Source: a virus (Duplodnaviria; Heunggongvirae; Uroviricota; Caudoviricetes). Taken from it: a DNA stretch of 46,907 bases. Under the pieces are notes generated by a model. The model searched no databases and was not told where the DNA came from. It saw only the letters and a program-made list of their open reading frames with translations. The translations under genes and the position numbers were made by a program. The DNA lies in the IMG/VR virus record IMGVR_UViG_2651869724_000014. The stretch is one strand, 5' to 3'. Shown here piece after piece: positions 5,045-17,374 of the stretch (positions are counted from its first letter, which is position 1; the number at the start of each line of letters is the position of its first letter).

Positions 5045-5200
5045 TTACTCCTCAGGTTCGTAAGCTGTGAAGACAGCGACCTCCGTCTGGCCGGTTCGGA
5101 TTCGTACCTCGCAGAGGTCTTTCCTCGTTACCAGTGCCGTCACAATGACGGTTAAACAGATGACGATCAGGGCGATTAACATCGCCTTTTGCTGCTTCAT
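5045..5200 (-). CDS. hokD: Hok/Gef family type I toxin HokD (RelF)
   Basis: 51-aa translation MKQQKAMLIALIVICLTVIVTALVTRKDLCEVRIRTGQTEVAVFTAYEPEE matches HokD as recalled; ATG at 5198-5200. Confidence 0.8.
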   Translation of the reverse strand: MKQQKAMLIALIVICLTVIVTALVTRKDLCEVRIRTGQTEVAVFTAYEPEE

Positions 5201-5994
5201 AGCCTGCTTCTCCTTGCCTTTCGGCACGTAAGAGGCTAACCTAGATTTGCCGTTCATAGATTGAGCCTCAGATTAATGTTAAGCGTCTTGCAGGACGCGT
5301 AATGTTAACTGGGGCTTTTCTCTATCTGCCTTTGGTGTTCATGCCTGAGACAGATAGCCTCAAGCACCCGCAGCCATTCTACTTAACTCCCGTTACCTCG
5401 CCAATATGAAATCAGTCAGAAAGGCGATCCATAAGAACAACAGCAAGGCAATAAATTGCCATTAAGGCAGCAATAGCCAGCGCACATTTGAGAACCAGCA
5501 CCACAACCTCCTGTATTGGACGTACATCAGTCCTGATAAATATGAGGCTGTCTCGTCAGTGATTCAATACAACTATTGGGTATAGTTTCTGTGATTTTGT
5601 TCTGTAGAAATGGAACACAATAACCAGTCACCACCAGCACTTCTTTAAATACGCCAAGTCCGACGCAAGCTAACCTTCTAGCCCACTTTGAGCGAGAAGC
5701 AGACATTTACTTAACTGGATAGCAAGAGACTTCATATATCATGGTTGATCCCGGAGTTTTCAATAATGGAAAGACATTGCCCGTATGATCGGGCCGTAAC
5801 CACATTAGAAGCAGGTGCCCTTTGTGAATTTTGATTGTGTCAACCTATCTGTTTTGAATTTTTTATAAAAAATATTCGCAAATTTGTGAATTATGAGAGA
5901 CAAACGAGCATGGACAACCAATGTTACTTTCATACACAATGAAGCAACATGATAAAAGTACACTGACTTTAGCAAGTAAATTTAGGAGATTGCG

Positions 5995-7329
5995 ATGTTT
6001 AGCTTAATCATGGCCGGAGAACCGGACGTTTTTGACCGCTGGCCGTGTATGGACCCAGGGCTTACAGAAGGCGAGGAAAGATTCTCGATGTCCCGCATGC
6101 TGGAAGGCACCCCAAGCGATATTTACAGTAAATTAACACCAATAAGACCCGATACCTTAAGAGAACTCGCCAAGCTACCAGTATTGTTCATGACCGAAAC
6201 TTATACAAAAGATGATGAATATGATACAAACAAGTACATCAGGATCAGACTTGGGGAAATAAGAAATTTACGTAAAGATGGTGGCGATATTTTATTTTCT
6301 TTCAAGATTAATCATAATTTTGGAGAAATAACGAATCCCCAAACGACATTATATAAAGAAACCCTAGGGCTAGGATCTTTCGGGTTAAGCCGTACACATT
6401 GGGCAGTAAAAAATAAGGATTTAAATATTGTTCTGGAATCACTTGGTTTAAACAAACAAAATAGTCACCTCAAAGGTACAATCAAATTAAAAAAACAAAC
6501 ATACCCAGTAGTCGAGAATATTATAGATTATCTTAATTTCATAAAGAAAAACTTTCGTGATGGTCTCATTACCTTTTATCGTGGACACTCTAAAAGCTCA
6601 TATGAGCTTGTCCCCTCTCTTTACAGAAAAAATCAAAACGGGACGTACAGGCATCTTGCTTCAGAATCTGATTTAGTACGTGAAATACTCAGCGCAAGAC
6701 CAAATGAATTTAAGGAGGATAAATTTACGATTGATAAACTTGTCCGCATGCAGCATTATGGCTTGCCTACAAGACTCTTAGACATTACATCTAACCCACT
6801 GATAGCATTATATTTTGCTTGCTGTTCGAACCCCAATGAAAACGGACAGGTGATTTCGTTTTCAACAAATAGAAAGAAAATTAAATATTTCGACTCAGAT
6901 ACAGTGAGCTGTATAGCAAACTTATCACTTTTATCTTACGAAGAGTTGGAAAAATTGTCCTCCTCTGATTCCAGAAAAGGTAATATGGAGTTATCTGAAC
7001 TCACTGATAAACTTGCAGACCTTATACAGAATGAAAAATCATATTTTAGAAACAGAATAATTCCTGATGACTTAAGGAAAGTTGTTTTCCTTAAGGCTAA
7101 AATAAATAATGAACGCATACAATCTCAGGCAGGAGCTTTTCTTCTGTTCGGACTTGATCCCATTTTACCGGAAACAGATGCTGAGTTTCCTCTTAACAGA
7201 GTGGAGATAGCGAACAAAAATAAAATTCTGGAAGAGCTGGCGCAGCTTAATATATCCGAAAGCACTGTATATCCCAGCATGGAGAAAACGGCAGCAGAAA
7301 TTAAAAAAAAGTTTTTATCGGTATCATAA
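5995..7329 (+). CDS. FRG-domain protein, candidate prophage-encoded defence/abortive-infection moron
   Basis: 444 aa with FYRGHSKSSYELVPSLYR and MQHYGLPTRLLDITSNPLIALYFAC, the FRG-domain core; opposite strand to surrounding phage genes and AT-rich. Confidence 0.55.
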   Translation: MFSLIMAGEPDVFDRWPCMDPGLTEGEERFSMSRMLEGTPSDIYSKLTPIRPDTLRELAKLPVLFMTETYTKDDEYDTNKYIRIRLGEIRNLRKDGGDILFSFKINHNFGEITNPQTTLYKETLGLGSFGLSRTHWAVKNKDLNIVLESLGLNKQNSHLKGTIKLKKQTYPVVENIIDYLNFIKKNFRDGLITFYRGHSKSSYELVPSLYRKNQNGTYRHLASESDLVREILSARPNEFKEDKFTIDKLVRMQHYGLPTRLLDITSNPLIALYFACCSNPNENGQVISFSTNRKKIKYFDSDTVSCIANLSLLSYEELEKLSSSDSRKGNMELSELTDKLADLIQNEKSYFRNRIIPDDLRKVVFLKAKINNERIQSQAGAFLLFGLDPILPETDAEFPLNRVEIANKNKILEELAQLNISESTVYPSMEKTAAEIKKKFLSVS

Positions 7330-7567
7330 AGGGATAAACTAAAGGCAACGAAAACTAAGACTGCGCAGTCTTCAGATGGAAGTGCTCATTGGGAACGGTT
7401 TCAGGGGCAAAAACTGGAAGTTCCAGTGGGCCTTGAGCTGCTCCCTATAAATTAACATATCTCAATGTTATCAATGTCTGCTTTTGGCACAAAGCGGACA
7501 ACCACGCTAGCTCTACCCTGTGCCACAAAATGTCAATTTACATCTGAACTAATGCACTTTAATCTCG

Positions 7568-7990
7568 TCACTTCAAAAAATACCGAACATCCCCCTGATA
7601 AAACGACAATATCCGCTGCATAACTTCGCTTTTACGACACTCAGTACAAATTATATTATGACGCCTGTCGTAACGACGTATTTCTCCATCAGGTAATGAC
7701 CAGATAAGGTCCGGATCAACCGCAGATGGTTTCTTCAGCTTTGCCCTTGAGAGCTTTTTACGGGCATTTTGCCAGTCCTTACGCGCCTGTTCAGACGGGA
7801 ATAACCCGTAACCAGAGTTGTATACATCGCCGCTGGCAACCAGCTCTCTTGCGAGAACGCTCATCAGATATCTTGTCGCACCTGTCTTGACTTCCAGTTG
7901 CCGTAACGTCTCACGCCCACTCTGGCGTACGAGTTCAACAACCTGCCCTTTAATTTTTTCTCGCTCTTCTTGTGTAAAAACTTTTGCCAC
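7568..7990 (-). CDS. Hypothetical prophage protein (replication region)
   Basis: 140-aa ORF directly downstream of O-like gene; no recognisable motif. Confidence 0.35.
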   Translation of the reverse strand: MAKVFTQEEREKIKGQVVELVRQSGRETLRQLEVKTGATRYLMSVLARELVASGDVYNSGYGLFPSEQARKDWQNARKKLSRAKLKKPSAVDPDLIWSLPDGEIRRYDRRHNIICTECRKSEVMQRILSFYQGDVRYFLK

Positions 7991-8030
7991 AAGTCCTCCT
8001 GAAAATTACCTCATGACCAGAAATCAACAC

Positions 8031-9107
8031 TTACCCCCTGAAGCCCGGTGGAATTTCGGTATCTGGTTCAGAAATGTGATTCACGCAACGCTGGTTATTC
8101 GTACCGCTTACCGGGAGCAACCAGGGGTTTTCAAAATTCCGGTCCGGTCCAAAAAACGTCGTCGCTCGCTGAACAAATTCCGTTCCCGCTTTCCCGGTAG
8201 CCGCCAGATATCTTGCGTAACGCCTCACGCCATCCAGCATGGCCTCTGGTGGCACCCCCTCGCGTAATCTGGCCTTCCAGGCACTGAAAGCGGATTTCTT
8301 CGGGTTTGCCCCAGCACGCAACGGGTACTCCCGCCAGACCTGTTCGAACACATCCGGATAATCCACTCGTCCCACAGACTGCCCGGTGTTTTCCGGAACT
8401 ACCCGATCGGCTTCCCGCTGAATGGCGGAATCGGCTTCAGGCTGCTGCAGTTGGTGTGATTGCTCCGGCCTTGCGGTCATCACCTGCTGCACAGCGCCCG
8501 AATCGGCTTTCAGCGCATACGCTGAATCGGCTTCCGGTGTCGTGCCTGCTGGCTGACCAGGATTGACGGCCTGAACATCCCCTGCCTGGTTCGTGGCGTT
8601 TTTTACGCCATGGACCATAGTATTTTGATCTTCTTGATCTGTATCTTTATCTGTATCTTTATCTGTCGTGACTCGTCGTGACATGTGCGTGACATTTCGT
8701 GACGCGCCGTGACAATCGCCATTTTGTTCCCGCTTTCTTTCCCTCTCTCGCTGCGCCCTCTTGCGCTCTGCAGGAGATTTTGCGGTTTGCGATATATTGC
8801 CGTTGTCCTCTTTAAGCACTTGGCGTTTTTCCCATCCAGTGATTAAATCACCATCAAGTACCCGCCCCTGCATCGTCTGCAAAATTGAATCAATTACCTC
8901 TTCTGTTACGTCGAGCGCACTTGCCAAATCTTCTGTCGTGACATCAATGTGACCTCGCGTGACATTTCGTGACGCGCTCACCAGGAGGTGGATATACACT
9001 GCCATCACTGTTGCAATTGGCTGCCCTGACACCCTGGCAATTGTTCGCCACTTAGGGTCATTTGGCATGTCATGCCATAATCTGAGCCAGGCGTTAGCCA
9101 TACTCAC
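8031..9107 (-). CDS. Phage replication initiator / replisome organiser (O-like)
   Basis: N-terminus MANAWLRLWHDMPNDPKWRTIARVSG...VYIHLLVSASRN resembles the replisome-organiser N-domain; follows cro/cII-like genes; contains internal iteron arrays. Confidence 0.5.
   Translation of the reverse strand: MSMANAWLRLWHDMPNDPKWRTIARVSGQPIATVMAVYIHLLVSASRNVTRGHIDVTTEDLASALDVTEEVIDSILQTMQGRVLDGDLITGWEKRQVLKEDNGNISQTAKSPAERKRAQRERERKREQNGDCHGASRNVTHMSRRVTTDKDTDKDTDQEDQNTMVHGVKNATNQAGDVQAVNPGQPAGTTPEADSAYALKADSGAVQQVMTARPEQSHQLQQPEADSAIQREADRVVPENTGQSVGRVDYPDVFEQVWREYPLRAGANPKKSAFSAWKARLREGVPPEAMLDGVRRYARYLAATGKAGTEFVQRATTFFGPDRNFENPWLLPVSGTNNQRCVNHISEPDTEIPPGFRG
8625..8975. repeat. Candidate prophage origin: helically phased CGTGAC iterons inside the O-like gene
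   Basis: CGTGAC at 8667, 8677, 8688, 8698, 8708 (10-11 bp spacing), a tandem repeat atctgtatcttt x2 at 8641-8666, and a second CGTGAC cluster at 8937-8972. Confidence 0.4.
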
Positions 9108-9172
9108 CTCTTCTGATACCGAATCTTTTTACTCACGAGTTGCCGGAAGCGATTCGATATGGCTATTGTCAG

Positions 9173-9598
9173 TCAATGTACTGCCACAGCATTTCCTGCC
9201 GGGCCACCACGGTTCATCTGATTGAAACCGGCGATTGCCACTGCGACAAAATCATCAGCGTCTCTCACCAATCGCTCCCGCGTCTCCACCAGCTCCCGAA
9301 AATAAGCTGAACTGTGGCTGCGCATTCTGGCCACCAGCAAAGGTGGCATTGCCTTTTCGATCGCTGGTAACAACGCCTGAATTTTTTCAACTGCATCAGG
9401 GGTGTCTTTCTCTACCCAGCGGAAAATTTTCTGGGTATTGCGAGCCAAGGCTTCCGGATGGCTGTCGTCATACAGTTCAGGAAACGTCATACCCAACTCA
9501 AAATAAGCCTGGGTTATTCCAGCTGCTGGAACTTTTTCGCCATCAGGACGCGCCCAGGCATTCATCGCCATGCGGATGTGTTCATGCTTGATTTTCAT
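9173..9598 (-). CDS. cII/YdaT-like early regulatory protein
   Basis: 141-aa ORF directly downstream of and overlapping the cro-like gene; size matches Rac YdaT; assignment by position. Confidence 0.3.
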   Translation of the reverse strand: MKIKHEHIRMAMNAWARPDGEKVPAAGITQAYFELGMTFPELYDDSHPEALARNTQKIFRWVEKDTPDAVEKIQALLPAIEKAMPPLLVARMRSHSSAYFRELVETRERLVRDADDFVAVAIAGFNQMNRGGPAGNAVAVH

Positions 9599-9825
9599 GA
9601 ATCCTCCCCTTGGTTAGAAGGCGGATTATGATCAGAACCGGGAATGACAACCGTCGGTATGTGTAACTCATATTTGAGCGCCCCGGCAGTGACTGCCTGA
9701 ATTAGCAACGCCCATTTCCACGGAACCTCTTCCCCCCACATGCTGACTGTGGTTTTTGACGTTCCTAGAGCTGCGGCTGTTTTAACAACTCCGCCAAAAT
9801 AGCCTAATACTTCTGATTTTTTCAT
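9595..9825 (-). CDS. Cro/DicC-like HTH regulator
   Basis: 76 aa from ATG at 9823-9825 with GGAG RBS; MKKSEVLGYFGGVVKTAAALGTSKTTVSMW is HTH-like; divergent from the cI-like gene. Confidence 0.5.
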   Translation of the reverse strand: MKKSEVLGYFGGVVKTAAALGTSKTTVSMWGEEVPWKWALLIQAVTAGALKYELHIPTVVIPGSDHNPPSNQGEDS

Positions 9826-9916
9826 GAGTCGCTCCATAAAACTGAACGCCAAAAGTTTAATAATCAAAACCAAAGAAAGTCAAGAAACAAAACCATCTGT
9901 GTTTTAAAATCAAAAC
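9826..9916. promoter_or_regulatory. Divergent immunity-region promoter/operator interval
   Basis: AT-rich 91-bp spacer between divergent cro-like and cI-like genes; operators not resolved. Confidence 0.35.
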
Positions 9917-10555
9917 ATGAGCAAGCAAACAATATCTGAACGCATAACCCAACGTATGCATGCGCTAAACCTGAAAGGCAAAGACCTTGTCAATGCCACT
10001 GGCGCATCAAAAGGCTCCGTAAGTCAATGGATGAACGGTGGAGGAGCGCCGTCCTCGCGTTACATAAGTTCACTGGCAAAGATATTGAAAGTAAACGAAA
10101 ATTGGCTTCTTAATGGAGGAGAGTTAAATACAGGTGATTCGCTTGATCTATCTTTACCGCCGATAAAAACGGTTCCGCTACTATCACTTCAGCAGGCAGC
10201 AAGCTGGAGTGATTATATGAAAAATTCCTCAATAACCTCTTGTGTGCAGCTTGTCGGAGAAATCCCGGCCAATACCTTTGCAGTTGTTCTAGAGAGTGAC
10301 AGTATGTCAACATCTGGTGGGGGAGTTTCCATCCCAAATGGTTCAACAGTTTTTGTTGATCCCGATCGAACCGTACAACCAGGAAATATTGTCCTTGCCT
10401 TACCCAAAGGGACCACAACACCTGTCATTCGTAAACTGGAGATAGAAGGGCCGGATATTCTTTTAGTCCCCACGAATCCTCGCTACCCTTCAATTATGCT
10501 GGATGATCTATCTTGCATATTGGGCGTATGCTTTAAAATTCAACAAGATATTTAA
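9917..10555 (+). CDS. cI-type prophage repressor (HTH + LexA-like S24 peptidase domain)
   Basis: N-terminal HTH (LNLKGKDLVNATGASKGSVSQWMNG) and C-terminal S24-like segment (VVLESDSMSTSGG...IRKLEIEG). Confidence 0.75.
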   Translation: MSKQTISERITQRMHALNLKGKDLVNATGASKGSVSQWMNGGGAPSSRYISSLAKILKVNENWLLNGGELNTGDSLDLSLPPIKTVPLLSLQQAASWSDYMKNSSITSCVQLVGEIPANTFAVVLESDSMSTSGGGVSIPNGSTVFVDPDRTVQPGNIVLALPKGTTTPVIRKLEIEGPDILLVPTNPRYPSIMLDDLSCILGVCFKIQQDI

Positions 10556-11726: not shown

Positions 11727-11784
11727 TTTCTGGTGACGTTTGGCGGTATCAGTTTTACTCCGTGACTGCTCTGCCGCCCTTTTT
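11727..11784 (+). ncRNA. dicF: DicF small RNA (ftsZ-targeting sRNA of Qin-type prophages)
   Basis: tttctggtgacgtttggcggtatcagttttactccgtgactgctctgccgcccttttt matches DicF as recalled, with terminal hairpin and T-run, between ydfC and dicB. Confidence 0.7.
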
Positions 11785-12423: not shown

Positions 12424-14865
12424 ATGAGCACTGATAAAGAAGAATTTGCACTATATTGCGAAGCAAAAAATGACAAAGTAAGAAAACGCCTAGGAATTAA
12501 AGGTGGTTTTTACTGGACTACAGCAAAAAAATTATCTGTTGCAATCTCCCGCTGCATTACCGCAATGGATGACAACGATTATGATGAAGACGACTTTAAA
12601 AAACCCGTCCGCGTCAATTTGCCCGTTGTTGACGACCTTCCGCCAGAAGGCGTGTTTGATACTGAATTCTGCAACCGCTATGAAAAAGGCGGGAAAGATG
12701 GCATCACAATGACATTTATCGGCCCTTCCCCCTCTGTTCAGGACAAACCAGCCAGCACTGACAATACCAACATCAACGGCGAAGACATGACTGAGATTGA
12801 GGAGAGCATGCTTCTGCCTGTCTCCGGTCAGGAACTGCCCATTCGTTGGCTTGCTCAACACGGCAGCGAAAAACCAGTAACGCACGTTTCACGCGACGAA
12901 CTCCAGGCATTACACATTGCACGGGCTGAAGAACTACCGGCTGTTACTGCCCTGGCTATTTCGCATAAAACCAGTCTGCTCGACTCGCTGGAGATTCGCG
13001 ACCTCCACAAACTGGTTCGTGACACTGACAAAGTTTTCCCTAATCCTGGTAATTCAGACCTGGGACTAATAACTGCTTTTTTCGAAGCATACCTGGACGC
13101 TGACTACACTGATCGGGGTCTGCTGACAAAAGAGTGGATGAAAGGAAATCGTGTTTCACGCATCACCCGCACGGCTTCCGGTGCTAATGCTGGCGGTGGG
13201 AACAAAACCGATCGCAATCCGAATTTAGTACACACCCTCGACACACTGGATGTGGAGATTGCAGCAGCCACACTTCCGATGGATTTTAATATTTATGAAA
13301 TTCCGGGCAGCGTTTATCGTCGCGCAAAAGAAGTAGTCCTGAACAAAGAAAGTCCGTTCAAAGAATGGTCCGCAGCACTTCGTGCAACCCCGGGTATTCT
13401 GGACTATTCCCGCGCCGCTATTTTTGCACTTATCCGAAGCGCACACCCTGAATTTTATCACTACCCGGGACGCCTTCAGGGGTATATCAACGCCTATTTG
13501 ACGGAAACTGATCACGAGAACCCCAGCAAGGAAACTCTCACAGCTGCCCGGCATACGCCGGAAAAAGATATCCTGGAAAAAATTAACCGCGAGGTGGTTA
13601 CTGAGCGTGAAACAGAAGAAGAAAAACCACAACCATCTGACGCAATGGCAGGTGAACAGGCAACAACTGAAACAATGGAACCGGATACAACTGAACATGG
13701 CCAGAACGCGCAGTCGCTGGATGCTCAGTCGCAGGTGAGTTCCGCTAACCAAGTAAAAGTCACCGCTGACGAAGTAAACAAAATTATGCAGGCAGCCAAT
13801 ATCAGCCAGCCTGACGCCGATAAGTTACTTGCTGTATCGCGTGGTGAATTTGTTGAGGGGATTAGCGACCCTAATGATCCGAAATGGGTCAAGGGGATCC
13901 AGACTCGCGATTCTGTGAACCAGAACCAGCATGAATCGGAACGGAACGACCAAAAAGCGGAACAAAACAGCCCAAATGCGTTACAAAACGAGCCAGAAAC
14001 GAAACAATCCGAACCAGTAGCGCAACAGGAACCGGAAAAAGTCTGCACCGCCTGCGGTCAGAGCGGTGGCGGCAACTGCCCTGATTGTGGCGCGGTGATG
14101 GGCGACGCAACATACCAGGAAACATTCGATGAAGAGAATCAGGTTGAAGTTCAGGAAAATGATCCGGAGGAAATGGAAGGCGCTGAACATCCACACAAGG
14201 AGAACCCTGGCGGCAATCAGCATCACGCCAGCGATAATAAAACTGGCGAGGCGACAGATCCCTTAATTAAGGTGAATGGTCATCATAAGCTCACATCCAC
14301 CAGCAGAGCGGGGATTCATCTGATGATCGACCTTGAAACCATGGGAAAAAATCCCGATGCCCCGATTATCTCAATAGGCGCAATATTTTTCGATCCACAA
14401 ACCGGAGATATGGGACCGGAATTTAGCAAGACCATCGATCTGGATACTGCTGGCGGAGTCATTGATCGTGACGTCATTAAATGGTGGCTGAAGCAATCAC
14501 GTGAAGCGCAGTCTGCCATTATGACCGATGAAATCCCGTTAGATGATGCACTACTGCAATTGCGGGAATTTATCGACGAAAACTCCGGTGAATTTTTTGT
14601 TCAGGTCTGGGGTAATGGGGCCAACTTCGACAACGTGATTTTACGCCGTTCATACGAACGACAGGGTATCCCCTGCCCATGGCGCTACTGCAACGATCGC
14701 GATGTACGCACAATCGTTGAGCTGGGGAAAGCCATAGACTTCGATGCCAGAACTGCTATCCCATTCGAAGGTGAGCGCCATAATGCACTTGATGACGCTC
14801 GTTACCAGGCAAAATACGTTTCAGCTATCTGGCAAAAACTGATCCCGAGTCAGGCTGATTTTTAA
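12424..14865 (+). CDS. Full-length YdfE-family protein with zinc ribbon and C-terminal DnaQ-like DEDDh 3'-5' exonuclease domain
   Basis: 813 aa; CTACGQSGGGNCPDCG zinc ribbon; exonuclease motifs IDLETMG, WGNGANFDNVIL and HNALDDARYQAKYV. Confidence 0.6.
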   Translation: MSTDKEEFALYCEAKNDKVRKRLGIKGGFYWTTAKKLSVAISRCITAMDDNDYDEDDFKKPVRVNLPVVDDLPPEGVFDTEFCNRYEKGGKDGITMTFIGPSPSVQDKPASTDNTNINGEDMTEIEESMLLPVSGQELPIRWLAQHGSEKPVTHVSRDELQALHIARAEELPAVTALAISHKTSLLDSLEIRDLHKLVRDTDKVFPNPGNSDLGLITAFFEAYLDADYTDRGLLTKEWMKGNRVSRITRTASGANAGGGNKTDRNPNLVHTLDTLDVEIAAATLPMDFNIYEIPGSVYRRAKEVVLNKESPFKEWSAALRATPGILDYSRAAIFALIRSAHPEFYHYPGRLQGYINAYLTETDHENPSKETLTAARHTPEKDILEKINREVVTERETEEEKPQPSDAMAGEQATTETMEPDTTEHGQNAQSLDAQSQVSSANQVKVTADEVNKIMQAANISQPDADKLLAVSRGEFVEGISDPNDPKWVKGIQTRDSVNQNQHESERNDQKAEQNSPNALQNEPETKQSEPVAQQEPEKVCTACGQSGGGNCPDCGAVMGDATYQETFDEENQVEVQENDPEEMEGAEHPHKENPGGNQHHASDNKTGEATDPLIKVNGHHKLTSTSRAGIHLMIDLETMGKNPDAPIISIGAIFFDPQTGDMGPEFSKTIDLDTAGGVIDRDVIKWWLKQSREAQSAIMTDEIPLDDALLQLREFIDENSGEFFVQVWGNGANFDNVILRRSYERQGIPCPWRYCNDRDVRTIVELGKAIDFDARTAIPFEGERHNALDDARYQAKYVSAIWQKLIPSQADF

Positions 14866-16217: not shown

Positions 16218-16307
16218 TGGCGGAGAGAGGGGGATTTGAACCCCCGGTGGAGTTGCCCCCACTCCGGTTTTCGAGACCGGTCCGTTCAGCCGCTCCGGCA
16301 TCTCTCC
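16218..16307 (-). tRNA. serU: tRNA-Ser (anticodon CGA)
   Basis: Minus-strand sequence GGAGAGATGCCGGAGCGG...CTCGAAAACC...GGTTCAAATCCCCCTCTCTCCGCCA: long variable arm, CGA anticodon loop, CCA end. Confidence 0.85.
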
Positions 16308-17298: not shown

Positions 17299-17374
17299 TC
17301 CTCTGTAGTTCAGTCGGTAGAACGGCGGACTGTTAATCCGTATGTCACTGGTTCGAGTCCAGTCAGAGGAGCCA
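17299..17374 (+). tRNA. asnT: tRNA-Asn (anticodon GTT)
   Basis: TCCTCTGTAGTTCAGTCGGTAGAACGGCGGACTGTTAATCCG...GGTTCGAGTCCAGTCAGAGGAGCCA, 76 nt. Confidence 0.85.

Follow-up and report, generated by a model that had tools for sequence, protein, structure and literature searches.

The initiator gene under study lies on the minus strand of a Caudoviricetes virus sequence deposited in IMG/VR (record IMGVR_UViG_2651869724_000014), the whole analysed stretch of which, 46,907 nucleotides (nt) of one strand read 5′ to 3′, is referred to below as the window. Within the coding sequence of this gene, a short motif recurs in two arrays of direct copies set 10–11 base pairs (bp) apart, one of which runs into a tract rich in purines and AT. 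It is likely that this stretch is an iteron-type replication origin of a lambdoid prophage, situated inside the gene of its own initiator and bound by the product of that gene. The proposal is carried by the phased arrays and the selection acting on them as DNA, by the co-variation of the motif core, by the adjoining tract, by the winged-helix fold of the initiator and by the domain swaps seen among its relatives. The features on which the argument draws are as follows, in window coordinates.

8031..9107, minus strand: initiator ('phage replisome organizer') gene, 358 amino acids (aa) from a GTG at 9107
8817..9101, minus strand: coding region of the predicted N-terminal winged-helix domain, presumed iteron-binding module, residues 1-95
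8937..8973, minus strand: iteron array A, GTCACG at 8968-8973, 8958-8963 and 8937-8942, degenerate GTCACA at 8948-8953
8905..8910, plus strand: degenerate inverted iteron copy, GTTACG (one mismatch), 32 nt downstream of array A
8667..8713, minus strand: iteron array B, five GTCACG at 8708-8713, 8698-8703, 8688-8693, 8677-8682 and 8667-8672
8617..8666, minus strand: purine/AT-rich tract, presumed DNA-unwinding element, ACAGATAAAGATACAGATAAAGATACAGATCAAGAAGATCAAAATAC on the coding strand, abutting the last array B iteron
8587..8617, no strand assigned: imperfect inverted repeat, 13 pairs including two G-T, 5-nt loop, on the far side of the tract
8034..8372, minus strand: coding region of the C-terminal module, presumed to serve helicase or primosome recruitment, helical core and tail SEPDTEIPPGFRG

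Iteron arrays and AT-rich tract inside the initiator gene

Both arrays and the tract are contained in the single open reading frame (ORF) 8031-9107, the product of which matches PHROG 3729 'replication initiation protein' over residues 3-358 (E = 8e-257), and the original prediction was therefore right to place the repeats inside the coding sequence of a replication initiator. The likely true start of the gene is the ATG at 9101 (MANAWLRLWHDMPNDPKW...), where the homologues and the PHROG alignment begin. The protein bears the NCBI name 'phage replisome organizer' and belongs to an NCBI cluster of 5786 sequences, the whole protein reaches no Pfam family above threshold, and near-identical initiators occur in the deposited phage genome records Tritos, Evi and vB_EcoM-606R7.

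The motif had been described as CGTGAC, which is real and lies on the plus strand, but the form that it takes in the coding (minus) strand is GTCACG. The window holds 20 copies of CGTGAC on its two strands, against 10.4 +/- 3.3 in shuffled sequences, and eight of these, all on the plus strand, are grouped (8667, 8677, 8688, 8698, 8708, 8937, 8958, 8968). With the expectation for a 310-bp stretch drawn from the background outside that stretch (0.13 CGTGAC per kb per strand), 0.04 copies would be found there, and the Poisson probability of at least eight is 1.5e-16. The remaining 12 copies are isolated, and the 46.9 kb of the window contain no further CGTGAC cluster of the kind that an oriR-like second origin would form.

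The five copies of array B start at 8667-8708 and are spaced by 10, 11, 10 and 10 bp on the plus strand, as had been claimed for them, or by 10, 10, 11 and 10 bp in gene direction. The second cluster does stand at the announced offset of 270 bp (8667 to 8937), but it proved to consist of three exact copies and one degenerate copy. The latter, at 8948-8953 (TGTGAC on the plus strand), restores the 10–11-bp spacing of array A, which is 10, 10 and 11 bp in gene direction when it is counted. If an iteron array is taken to be at least three direct, helically phased repeats under selection at the DNA level, the gene has two, of five and four copies with a 10–11-bp period. A 19-nt stretch, GCGTCACGAAATGTCACGC, is identical in both.

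In gene direction, array A is followed by about 230 bp of coding sequence, array B, the AT-rich tract and the inverted repeat. Three 12-nt tandem repeats of the atctgtatcttt type occupy 8632-8667, in agreement with the tandem repeat noted earlier beside the iterons, and coincide with the lowest GC content of the gene (0.32-0.34 at 8600-8674). A tract of low stability hence adjoins the iterons, and its unwinding role is presumed from its composition. This tract also contains two GATC (Dam/SeqA) sites, at 8627 and 8636 and thus 9 bp apart, which are two of just three GATC in 8000-9200; a link to methylation-dependent control of origin opening is possible. Similarly, the inverted repeat at 8587-8617 is possibly a boundary element of the origin. 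In many other loci of the family, the tract is closely followed, between +430 and +600 of the gene, by a C-run (CCCCCC...GGGGGG) or a GC-rich palindrome of short length. A hairpin conserved across loci at this place was considered and rejected, its scores being only modestly above those of shuffled sequences.

Sequence constraint and conservation of the arrays

It is extremely improbable that the repeats are devoid of function as DNA and arise only from the encoding of a repetitive or conserved peptide (e.g., SRNVT) or from an antisense gene that overlaps them. SRNVT is indeed encoded in both arrays, and an antisense ORF of 88 aa (8959-9225, plus strand; MTFRDA...) starts from a GTG inside array A, with a similar one in Pseudomonas phage phi1 (locus L002, 2287-2643, minus strand). 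However, the reading frames of GTCACG are 2, 0, 1 and 0 in array A and 1, 2, 0, 2 and 0 in array B, so that no frame is left out and the encoded dipeptide varies (C-H, S-R or V-T), and a period of 10–11 nt is no multiple of 3, which makes a codon repeat impossible. Other clades of the family swap the peptide (SNATERGRTQ, CNAVKRGETQ) and retain the layout of two arrays with a 10-bp period.

The usage of synonymous codons bears directly on the same point. It was compared over the N-terminal 100 codons, free of gaps, of 21 diverged loci of the GTCACG class (the window, L001, L002 and L007-L027), at residues conserved in at least 85% of the loci. Six residues of array A use one codon each in 21 of 21 loci (V47 GTC, T48 ACG, G50 GGT, H51 CAC, V54 GTC and T55 ACG), and S44 is TCA in 20 of 21; conserved residues outside array A use 3-6 codons each, their synonymous sites being saturated. 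The mean codon entropy is 0.29 bits inside array A (n = 10) and 1.48 bits outside it (n = 42; Mann-Whitney p = 1.2e-5). R49 (CGN) is the sole conserved residue of which the third base falls in a spacer, and this third base is free. As synonymous sites are frozen within the hexamers and free in the spacer, selection acts on the hexamer itself, and the codon comparison indicates that the repeats function as DNA and not as a peptide repeat. The repetitive peptide that the original prediction had named as a refuting explanation thus fails on the three frames, on the period and on the invariant codons of the 21 loci.

The antisense ORF 8959-9225 was ruled out as the source of the constraint: its frame coincides with that of the gene in third positions, and the constraint is limited to the 6-bp cores, synonymous sites being saturated elsewhere, the part covered by the antisense ORF included. 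An antisense frame whose third positions coincide with those of the sense frame is known to generate long ORFs incidentally. The ORF lies in that frame and is probably such a by-product of conservation of the sense strand.

A scan with the N-terminal domain yielded 52 loci, one genome per species and mostly from Gamma- and Betaproteobacteria, and in 42 of them both arrays are built on a core specific to the class (26 GTCACG, 11 CGAACG(C) and 5 GTAACG(C)). In all loci of at least about 57% identity, GTCACG occupies two constant positions relative to the start, about +128 to +159 and about +386 to +430, and is nearly missing from the rest of each 5-kb locus; more distant loci have another core, CGAACG(C) or GTAACG(C), at the same two positions. 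These positions are shared by phages and prophages of Escherichia, Aeromonas, Pseudomonas, Bordetella, Serratia and Acidovorax, among others, and the presence of the repeats in homologues, on which the original prediction had staked its claim, is thereby confirmed. Counted per kb, the own-class core occurs 18-28 times in array A and 13-17 times in array B, whereas the flanks have 0.1-0.4 copies, and no cores of other classes were found in the arrays of a given class. The unit period of the GTCACG class is 10 bp in 103 intervals and 11 bp in 31, and that of the CGAACGC class is 10 bp. The core is the same in both arrays of each locus and tracks the clade of the N-terminal domain; shared descent does not account for the match between the two arrays within a locus.

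Two further elements recur with the arrays. A (C/T)AGATAAAGATA... tract directly follows the last array B unit in nearly all loci and in all three iteron classes; it is mostly read as D-K-D-K or D-K-D-T, and in some loci in the other two frames (Q-I-R-E-E, R-E-E-E-R). The inverted iteron, degenerate in the window, has in relatives the consensus GTCACG on the plus strand, i.e., CGTGAC in gene sense, and is present in most loci of the GTCACG class, 14 at a minimum, at offset +191, or at +179 if the match begins 12 nt further on. In 18 of 19 loci, Val65 is encoded at this site by GTG, a uniformity that the remaining conserved Val codons do not show.

The relatives also show that the gene is modular. 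In tblastn comparisons with phage genomes, residues 1-140 are about 70% identical to proteins of the Aeromonas phage pAEv1818 and of D3-like Pseudomonas phages, and residues 160-358 are about 65% identical to proteins of the phages POCJ13 and 75/02 Stx (Stx, Shiga toxin). On the one hand, pAEv1818 and phi1 differ from the window in C-terminal domain, immunity genes and downstream partner (pAEv1818, DnaC-like loader; phi1, primase-helicase of 609 aa), and each carries two GTCACG clusters, 250-260 bp apart. On the other hand, POCJ13 has only the C-terminal half in common, with a different N-terminal half, and zero copies of GTCACG. To judge from these swaps, the iterons accompany the N-terminal module and not the exchangeable C-terminal domain.

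The same comparisons bear on the idea that the motifs are bound by a host factor or by a Cro-, CI- or YdaT-like regulator, or that they act as GUCACG repeats of the messenger RNA in translational control, which we regard as very unlikely. All copies lie on the coding strand and hence also in the transcript, and a YdaT/cII-like gene stands just upstream both here and in the Aeromonas phage. Nevertheless, the N-terminal domain is the only part of the gene common to all iteron-bearing loci examined, the immunity and cII-like genes differ among the window, pAEv1818 and phi1, and different clades of the N-terminal domain have different cores. As for RNA, a period of 10–11 nt is the helical repeat of duplex DNA and no known feature of RNA, direct repeats cannot pair with one another, and no Rfam family matched in the gene region.

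Initiator protein and proposed mechanism of origin opening

Residues 1-163 were modelled with AlphaFold2 from an alignment of 100 sequences. The model has a predicted local distance difference test score (pLDDT) of 75.5 overall and above 90 over residues 11-90. It comprises helices at 4-11, 16-25 and 29-45, a loop at 46-55, helices at 56-63 and 67-77 and a beta hairpin at 78-88; beyond this, it is disordered except for a basic helix at 110-126. The N-terminal domain is accordingly modelled as a winged helix. The folds nearest to it are the N-terminal domain (NTD) of DnaD and a RepA_N initiator, and the domain has the DnaD-like winged-helix fold of the replisome-organizer class. The corresponding Pfam family PF09681 aligns protein residues 5-123 to profile positions 1-119 of 121, with E = 0.016 and 15.6 bits against a cutoff of 23.3. 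The initiator probably belongs, as a distant member, to the replisome-organizer / DnaD-NTD class.

Array A encodes the end of a helix and the H1-H2 loop that precedes the helix-turn-helix (residues S44-T55, SRNVTRGHIDVT), and array B encodes a disordered linker (pLDDT <50) between the N- and C-terminal modules. Both arrays hence fall in segments that tolerate changes of length, and variants of the gene differ by whole in-frame units. A 7-aa insertion in array A (21 nt, two units) is found in Escherichia albertii (L006) and in the proteins P0003 and P0022, the close E. coli variant P0003 also has an 11-aa (33-nt) insertion in array B, and the number of DKDT units differs between variants. Another natural variant of the initiator, the E. 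coli protein P0020 (302 aa), lacks the segment from the second array B unit through the AT-rich tract (compared with window 8520-8700), which may be the sign of a replication-dead prophage.

Across iteron classes, the helix-turn-helix and wing are strongly conserved, and the residues that discriminate the classes are those of the array A loop (45-55), residues 65-67 at the presumed start of the recognition helix, and residues 100-110. The peptide of the loop is set by the iteron, SRNVTRGH going with GTCACG and SNATERGRTQ with CGAACGC, so that a change of iteron specificity would rewrite part of the DNA-binding domain; the array A loop might itself contribute to binding specificity.

The C-terminal module ends in a tail, SEPDTEIPPGFRG, that matches the C-terminus of E. 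coli DnaT (6aep, 2ru8, 9zbt; E = 0.004-0.016). Only the last ~25 residues of DnaT are matched by the window protein (NCBIfam E = 0.0015), and the DnaT domain that binds single-stranded DNA (ssDNA), PF17948, was not found in its C-terminal part; the Aeromonas relative has a full DnaT domain (E = 1.6e-16). The C-terminal domain of DnaT forms filaments on ssDNA at the helicase-loading site (PMC13377028). The linker that precedes the C-terminal domain contains four in-frame copies of GAAGCCGATTC (window 8405-8537, in the minus-strand gene, spacing 24/96 nt), which encode (P)EADSA and also occur at 2600-2713 of locus L003. Since POCJ13 also has them, these copies travel with the C-terminal module; close E. 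coli variants show deletions of 8, 24 and 32 aa between them. They may be a peptide repeat, a recombination substrate or a binding site.

In the mechanism that we propose, the N-terminal DnaD-like winged-helix domain would bind the 6-bp core GTCACG, and the direct orientation of cores every 10–11 bp would place 4-5 protomers head-to-tail on one face of the helix. Array B (8667-8713) would be the origin core, on which a nucleoprotein filament is nucleated; this filament would end directly at the (GATAAA/GATACA)n tract, and duplex opening would take place in that tract (8617-8666), which is less stable than any other DNA of the gene. The variable C-terminal module would then recruit the helicase machinery. 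Given the DnaT-like tail and the absence of a phage helicase loader gene downstream, the phage presumably relies on DnaB/DnaC or primosome factors of its host. Array A (8937-8973), about 230 bp upstream, would be a second initiator-binding array that loops to the array B complex or stabilises it, and it could alternatively or additionally throttle transcription through the gene as a roadblock.

The relative weight of the two arrays is informed by the locus L040, which has array B and the tract and lacks array A. Array A is therefore dispensable in at least one lineage, and array B with the tract is probably the core origin, array A being auxiliary or a control site. A second initiator-binding array with such an auxiliary or control function is the most likely identity of array A. 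That the origin is obligatorily bipartite and self-referential, with array A as a functional partner of array B, either by looping or by a roadblock or handcuff that couples initiator synthesis to occupancy, is rather doubtful. If it were true, the sites and the protein would co-evolve through one common stretch of DNA.

Control could also be the main purpose of both arrays, which would then be initiator-binding sites acting by autoregulatory roadblock or by titration and handcuffing, as P1 incA and F incC do, with replication starting elsewhere; we hold this to be distinctly unlikely. The P1 and F plasmids are two-array iteron systems with an established control array. Array A lies about 135 nt into the ORF without an adjoining AT-rich tract, and L040, without array A, retains array B and its tract. 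Yet array B is always joined to an AT/purine-rich tract of the unwinding-element kind, the 46.9-kb window has no other cluster of the motif, and lambda, SPP1 oriL and pSK41 all start replication at repeats within a gene (PMC7466680, PMC6316719, PMC5703833). A control function is most plausible for array A alone, and would then be compatible with array B as the origin.

Several points weigh against the proposed origin. The loss of array A in L040 is one of them, and in seven other members of the family (L031, L033, L045, L046, L049, L050 and L054) in-gene iterons were not detected, so that arrays are not obligatory for the protein family. The gap between the arrays of a locus is 195-340 bp (median 229), i.e., 18.6-32.4 helical turns; strict helical phasing between arrays A and B was rejected since these gaps are non-integral in turns, which leaves a strictly phased loop unsupported. 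Clade and iteron class are confounded, and the co-variation of protein and iteron could be partly due to shared descent. No DnaA box (TTATCCACA, up to one mismatch) occurs in 7000-10500, and the fold search with the C-terminal model of the window protein was uninformative. Helicase recruitment is the weakest step of the proposal, as there is no DnaA box and no loader gene follows. More generally, the binding of the initiator, the unwinding of the tract, the recruitment of helicase and the role of array A are proposed from comparative evidence. Finally, a search of the open-access literature, in which older subscription papers may be missed, turned up no description of an origin for this initiator family; neither GTCACG iterons, nor E. 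coli prophage replisome-organizer origins, nor the replication regions of non-lambdoid Stx phages led to one.

Known systems, prevalence and other features of the window

The genes around the initiator are the following.

9917-10555, plus strand: cI-like S24 repressor
9595-9873, minus strand: P22-Cro-like gene
9173-9598, minus strand: YdaT/cII-like gene
7568-7990, minus strand: DUF977 / Ren-like gene, downstream of the initiator

The locus is the early-right operon of a lambdoid prophage, with the initiator gene in the position of lambda O, and lies, as in lambda, downstream of cro and cII-like genes. In lambda and Stx phages, the origin is inside O, and Stx variants with 6 iterons are known (PMC7466680). 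The likeness extends to the placement of the origin at the junction of an N-terminal DNA-binding part and a C-terminal recruitment part of the initiator gene, to the succession of iterons, AT-rich tract and inverted repeat, and to extra iterons that add in-frame residues to the linker (PMC7466680). The parallel with lambda drawn by the original prediction therefore holds for the iterons followed by an AT-rich tract at a domain junction in the gene, and 'O-like' is apt for the function of the initiator; neither extends to sequence, as the protein has no match to lambda O (Pfam Phage_rep_O, E <= 0.01 or E <= 1) and its fold is DnaD-NTD-like. The iterons of lambda are about 19 bp long, have dyad symmetry and are bound by dimers, whereas the core here is 6 bp, direct and without dyad symmetry, with a 10–11-bp period. 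Lambda also has no counterpart to the second array, here within the coding region of the DNA-binding domain, and the P-type loader is missing here, the downstream gene being DUF977 / Ren-like.

The replisome organizers of Gram-positive phages (SPP1 G38P/oriL, lactococcal TP901-1 and Tuc2009 rep; PF09681) have in common with the window protein a DnaD-like winged-helix N-terminus, and with its gene the direct repeats and AT-rich unwinding element inside the initiator's own coding sequence. SPP1 oriL is inside gene 38, and G38P binds two separate repeat regions (PMC6316719). Here, by contrast, PF09681 stays below threshold, the hosts are Proteobacteria and the repeat unit is much shorter; in addition, the two repeat regions lie in a single gene with about 230 bp between them, against the 13 kb that separate oriL and oriR. 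In the plasmid pSK41, four Rep boxes are located inside rep and encode a linker peptide that can be dispensed with, in an initiator of which the N-terminal domain resembles DnaD (PMC5703833). The repeats of the window likewise lie inside the initiator gene and partly in its linker-coding part. Unlike pSK41 and other RepA_N systems, the window gene belongs to a phage and not to a plasmid, lacks a RepA_N Pfam match, and has a second array and shorter units.

The satellite phage P4 also groups short iterons of approximately helical period in two places, ori and crr, which contain octamer-class iterons, are recognised by one domain of the initiator and are both needed in cis. Its alpha protein, a primase-helicase, binds DNA through an unrelated domain, and ori and crr are about 4.5 kb apart; both lie outside the coding region of the initiator's DNA-binding domain, whereas array A here is inside it. 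The P1 incC/incA and F incB/incC arrays flank rep and consist of 19-bp units, one array being at the origin and the other serving control by titration or handcuffing. With these systems, the window shares two arrays of the same iteron, one joined to an unwinding element and one separate; it differs in that both arrays are intragenic and made of 10-bp units, the control role of array A being putative. An origin within a gene is thus a known design, and it is the bipartite, co-varying and domain-embedded layout that is new, together with the three naturally occurring classes of specificity. The locus is set apart from all systems compared by a 6-bp core with a 10-bp period and by two arrays of the same, clade-specific core in one gene, one of them inside the coding sequence of a folded domain.

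The initiator gene or parts of it occur in 2968 of 5426 complete E. coli genomes, with at least 80% of the gene present in 1647; more than 580 IMG/VR contigs match the initiator, and the family of the N-terminal domain comprises about 2000 clusters at 50% identity. A definition of the origin at the sequence level, i.e., two arrays of 10-bp units with a clade-specific core, followed by a (GATAAA)n tract, would make it feasible to annotate origins in thousands of prophages, including relatives in the O157 and Stx-phage lineages. The iteron class would predict replication incompatibility or cross-activation between co-resident prophages, and GTCACG, CGAACGC and GTAACGC would form a natural three-class set for work on the recognition of a 6-bp site by a DnaD-like winged helix. 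The gene is also a clean case of a coding sequence constrained by a predicted protein-binding array within a folded domain, and not in a linker only.

Several other features of the window deserve mention. Just beyond the replication module, on the opposite strand, an ORF of 444 aa (5995-7329, plus strand) contains an FRG domain (E = 3e-22); among the PADLOC candidate defence families, PDC-S15 is matched (E = 3e-99). An equally long ORF (1335 nt), likewise on the opposite strand, occupies the corresponding position in phage Tritos. The ORF of the window is likely a defence moron. An 813-aa protein (12424-14865, plus strand) combines the N-terminal region of RecE (Exonuc_VIII) with a C-terminal Rv2179c-like 3′-5′ exonuclease domain, which replaces the usual RecE nuclease domain. 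Rfam matches include the DicF small RNA (sRNA) at 11728-11779 (plus strand), in an immunity-left region of the Qin/Kim type, the sok antitoxin RNA of a hok/sok locus at 5195-5369 (minus strand), the sRNAs STnc100 and AgvB within 654-906, and two tRNA genes at 16221-16307 (minus strand) and 17299-17371 (plus strand).

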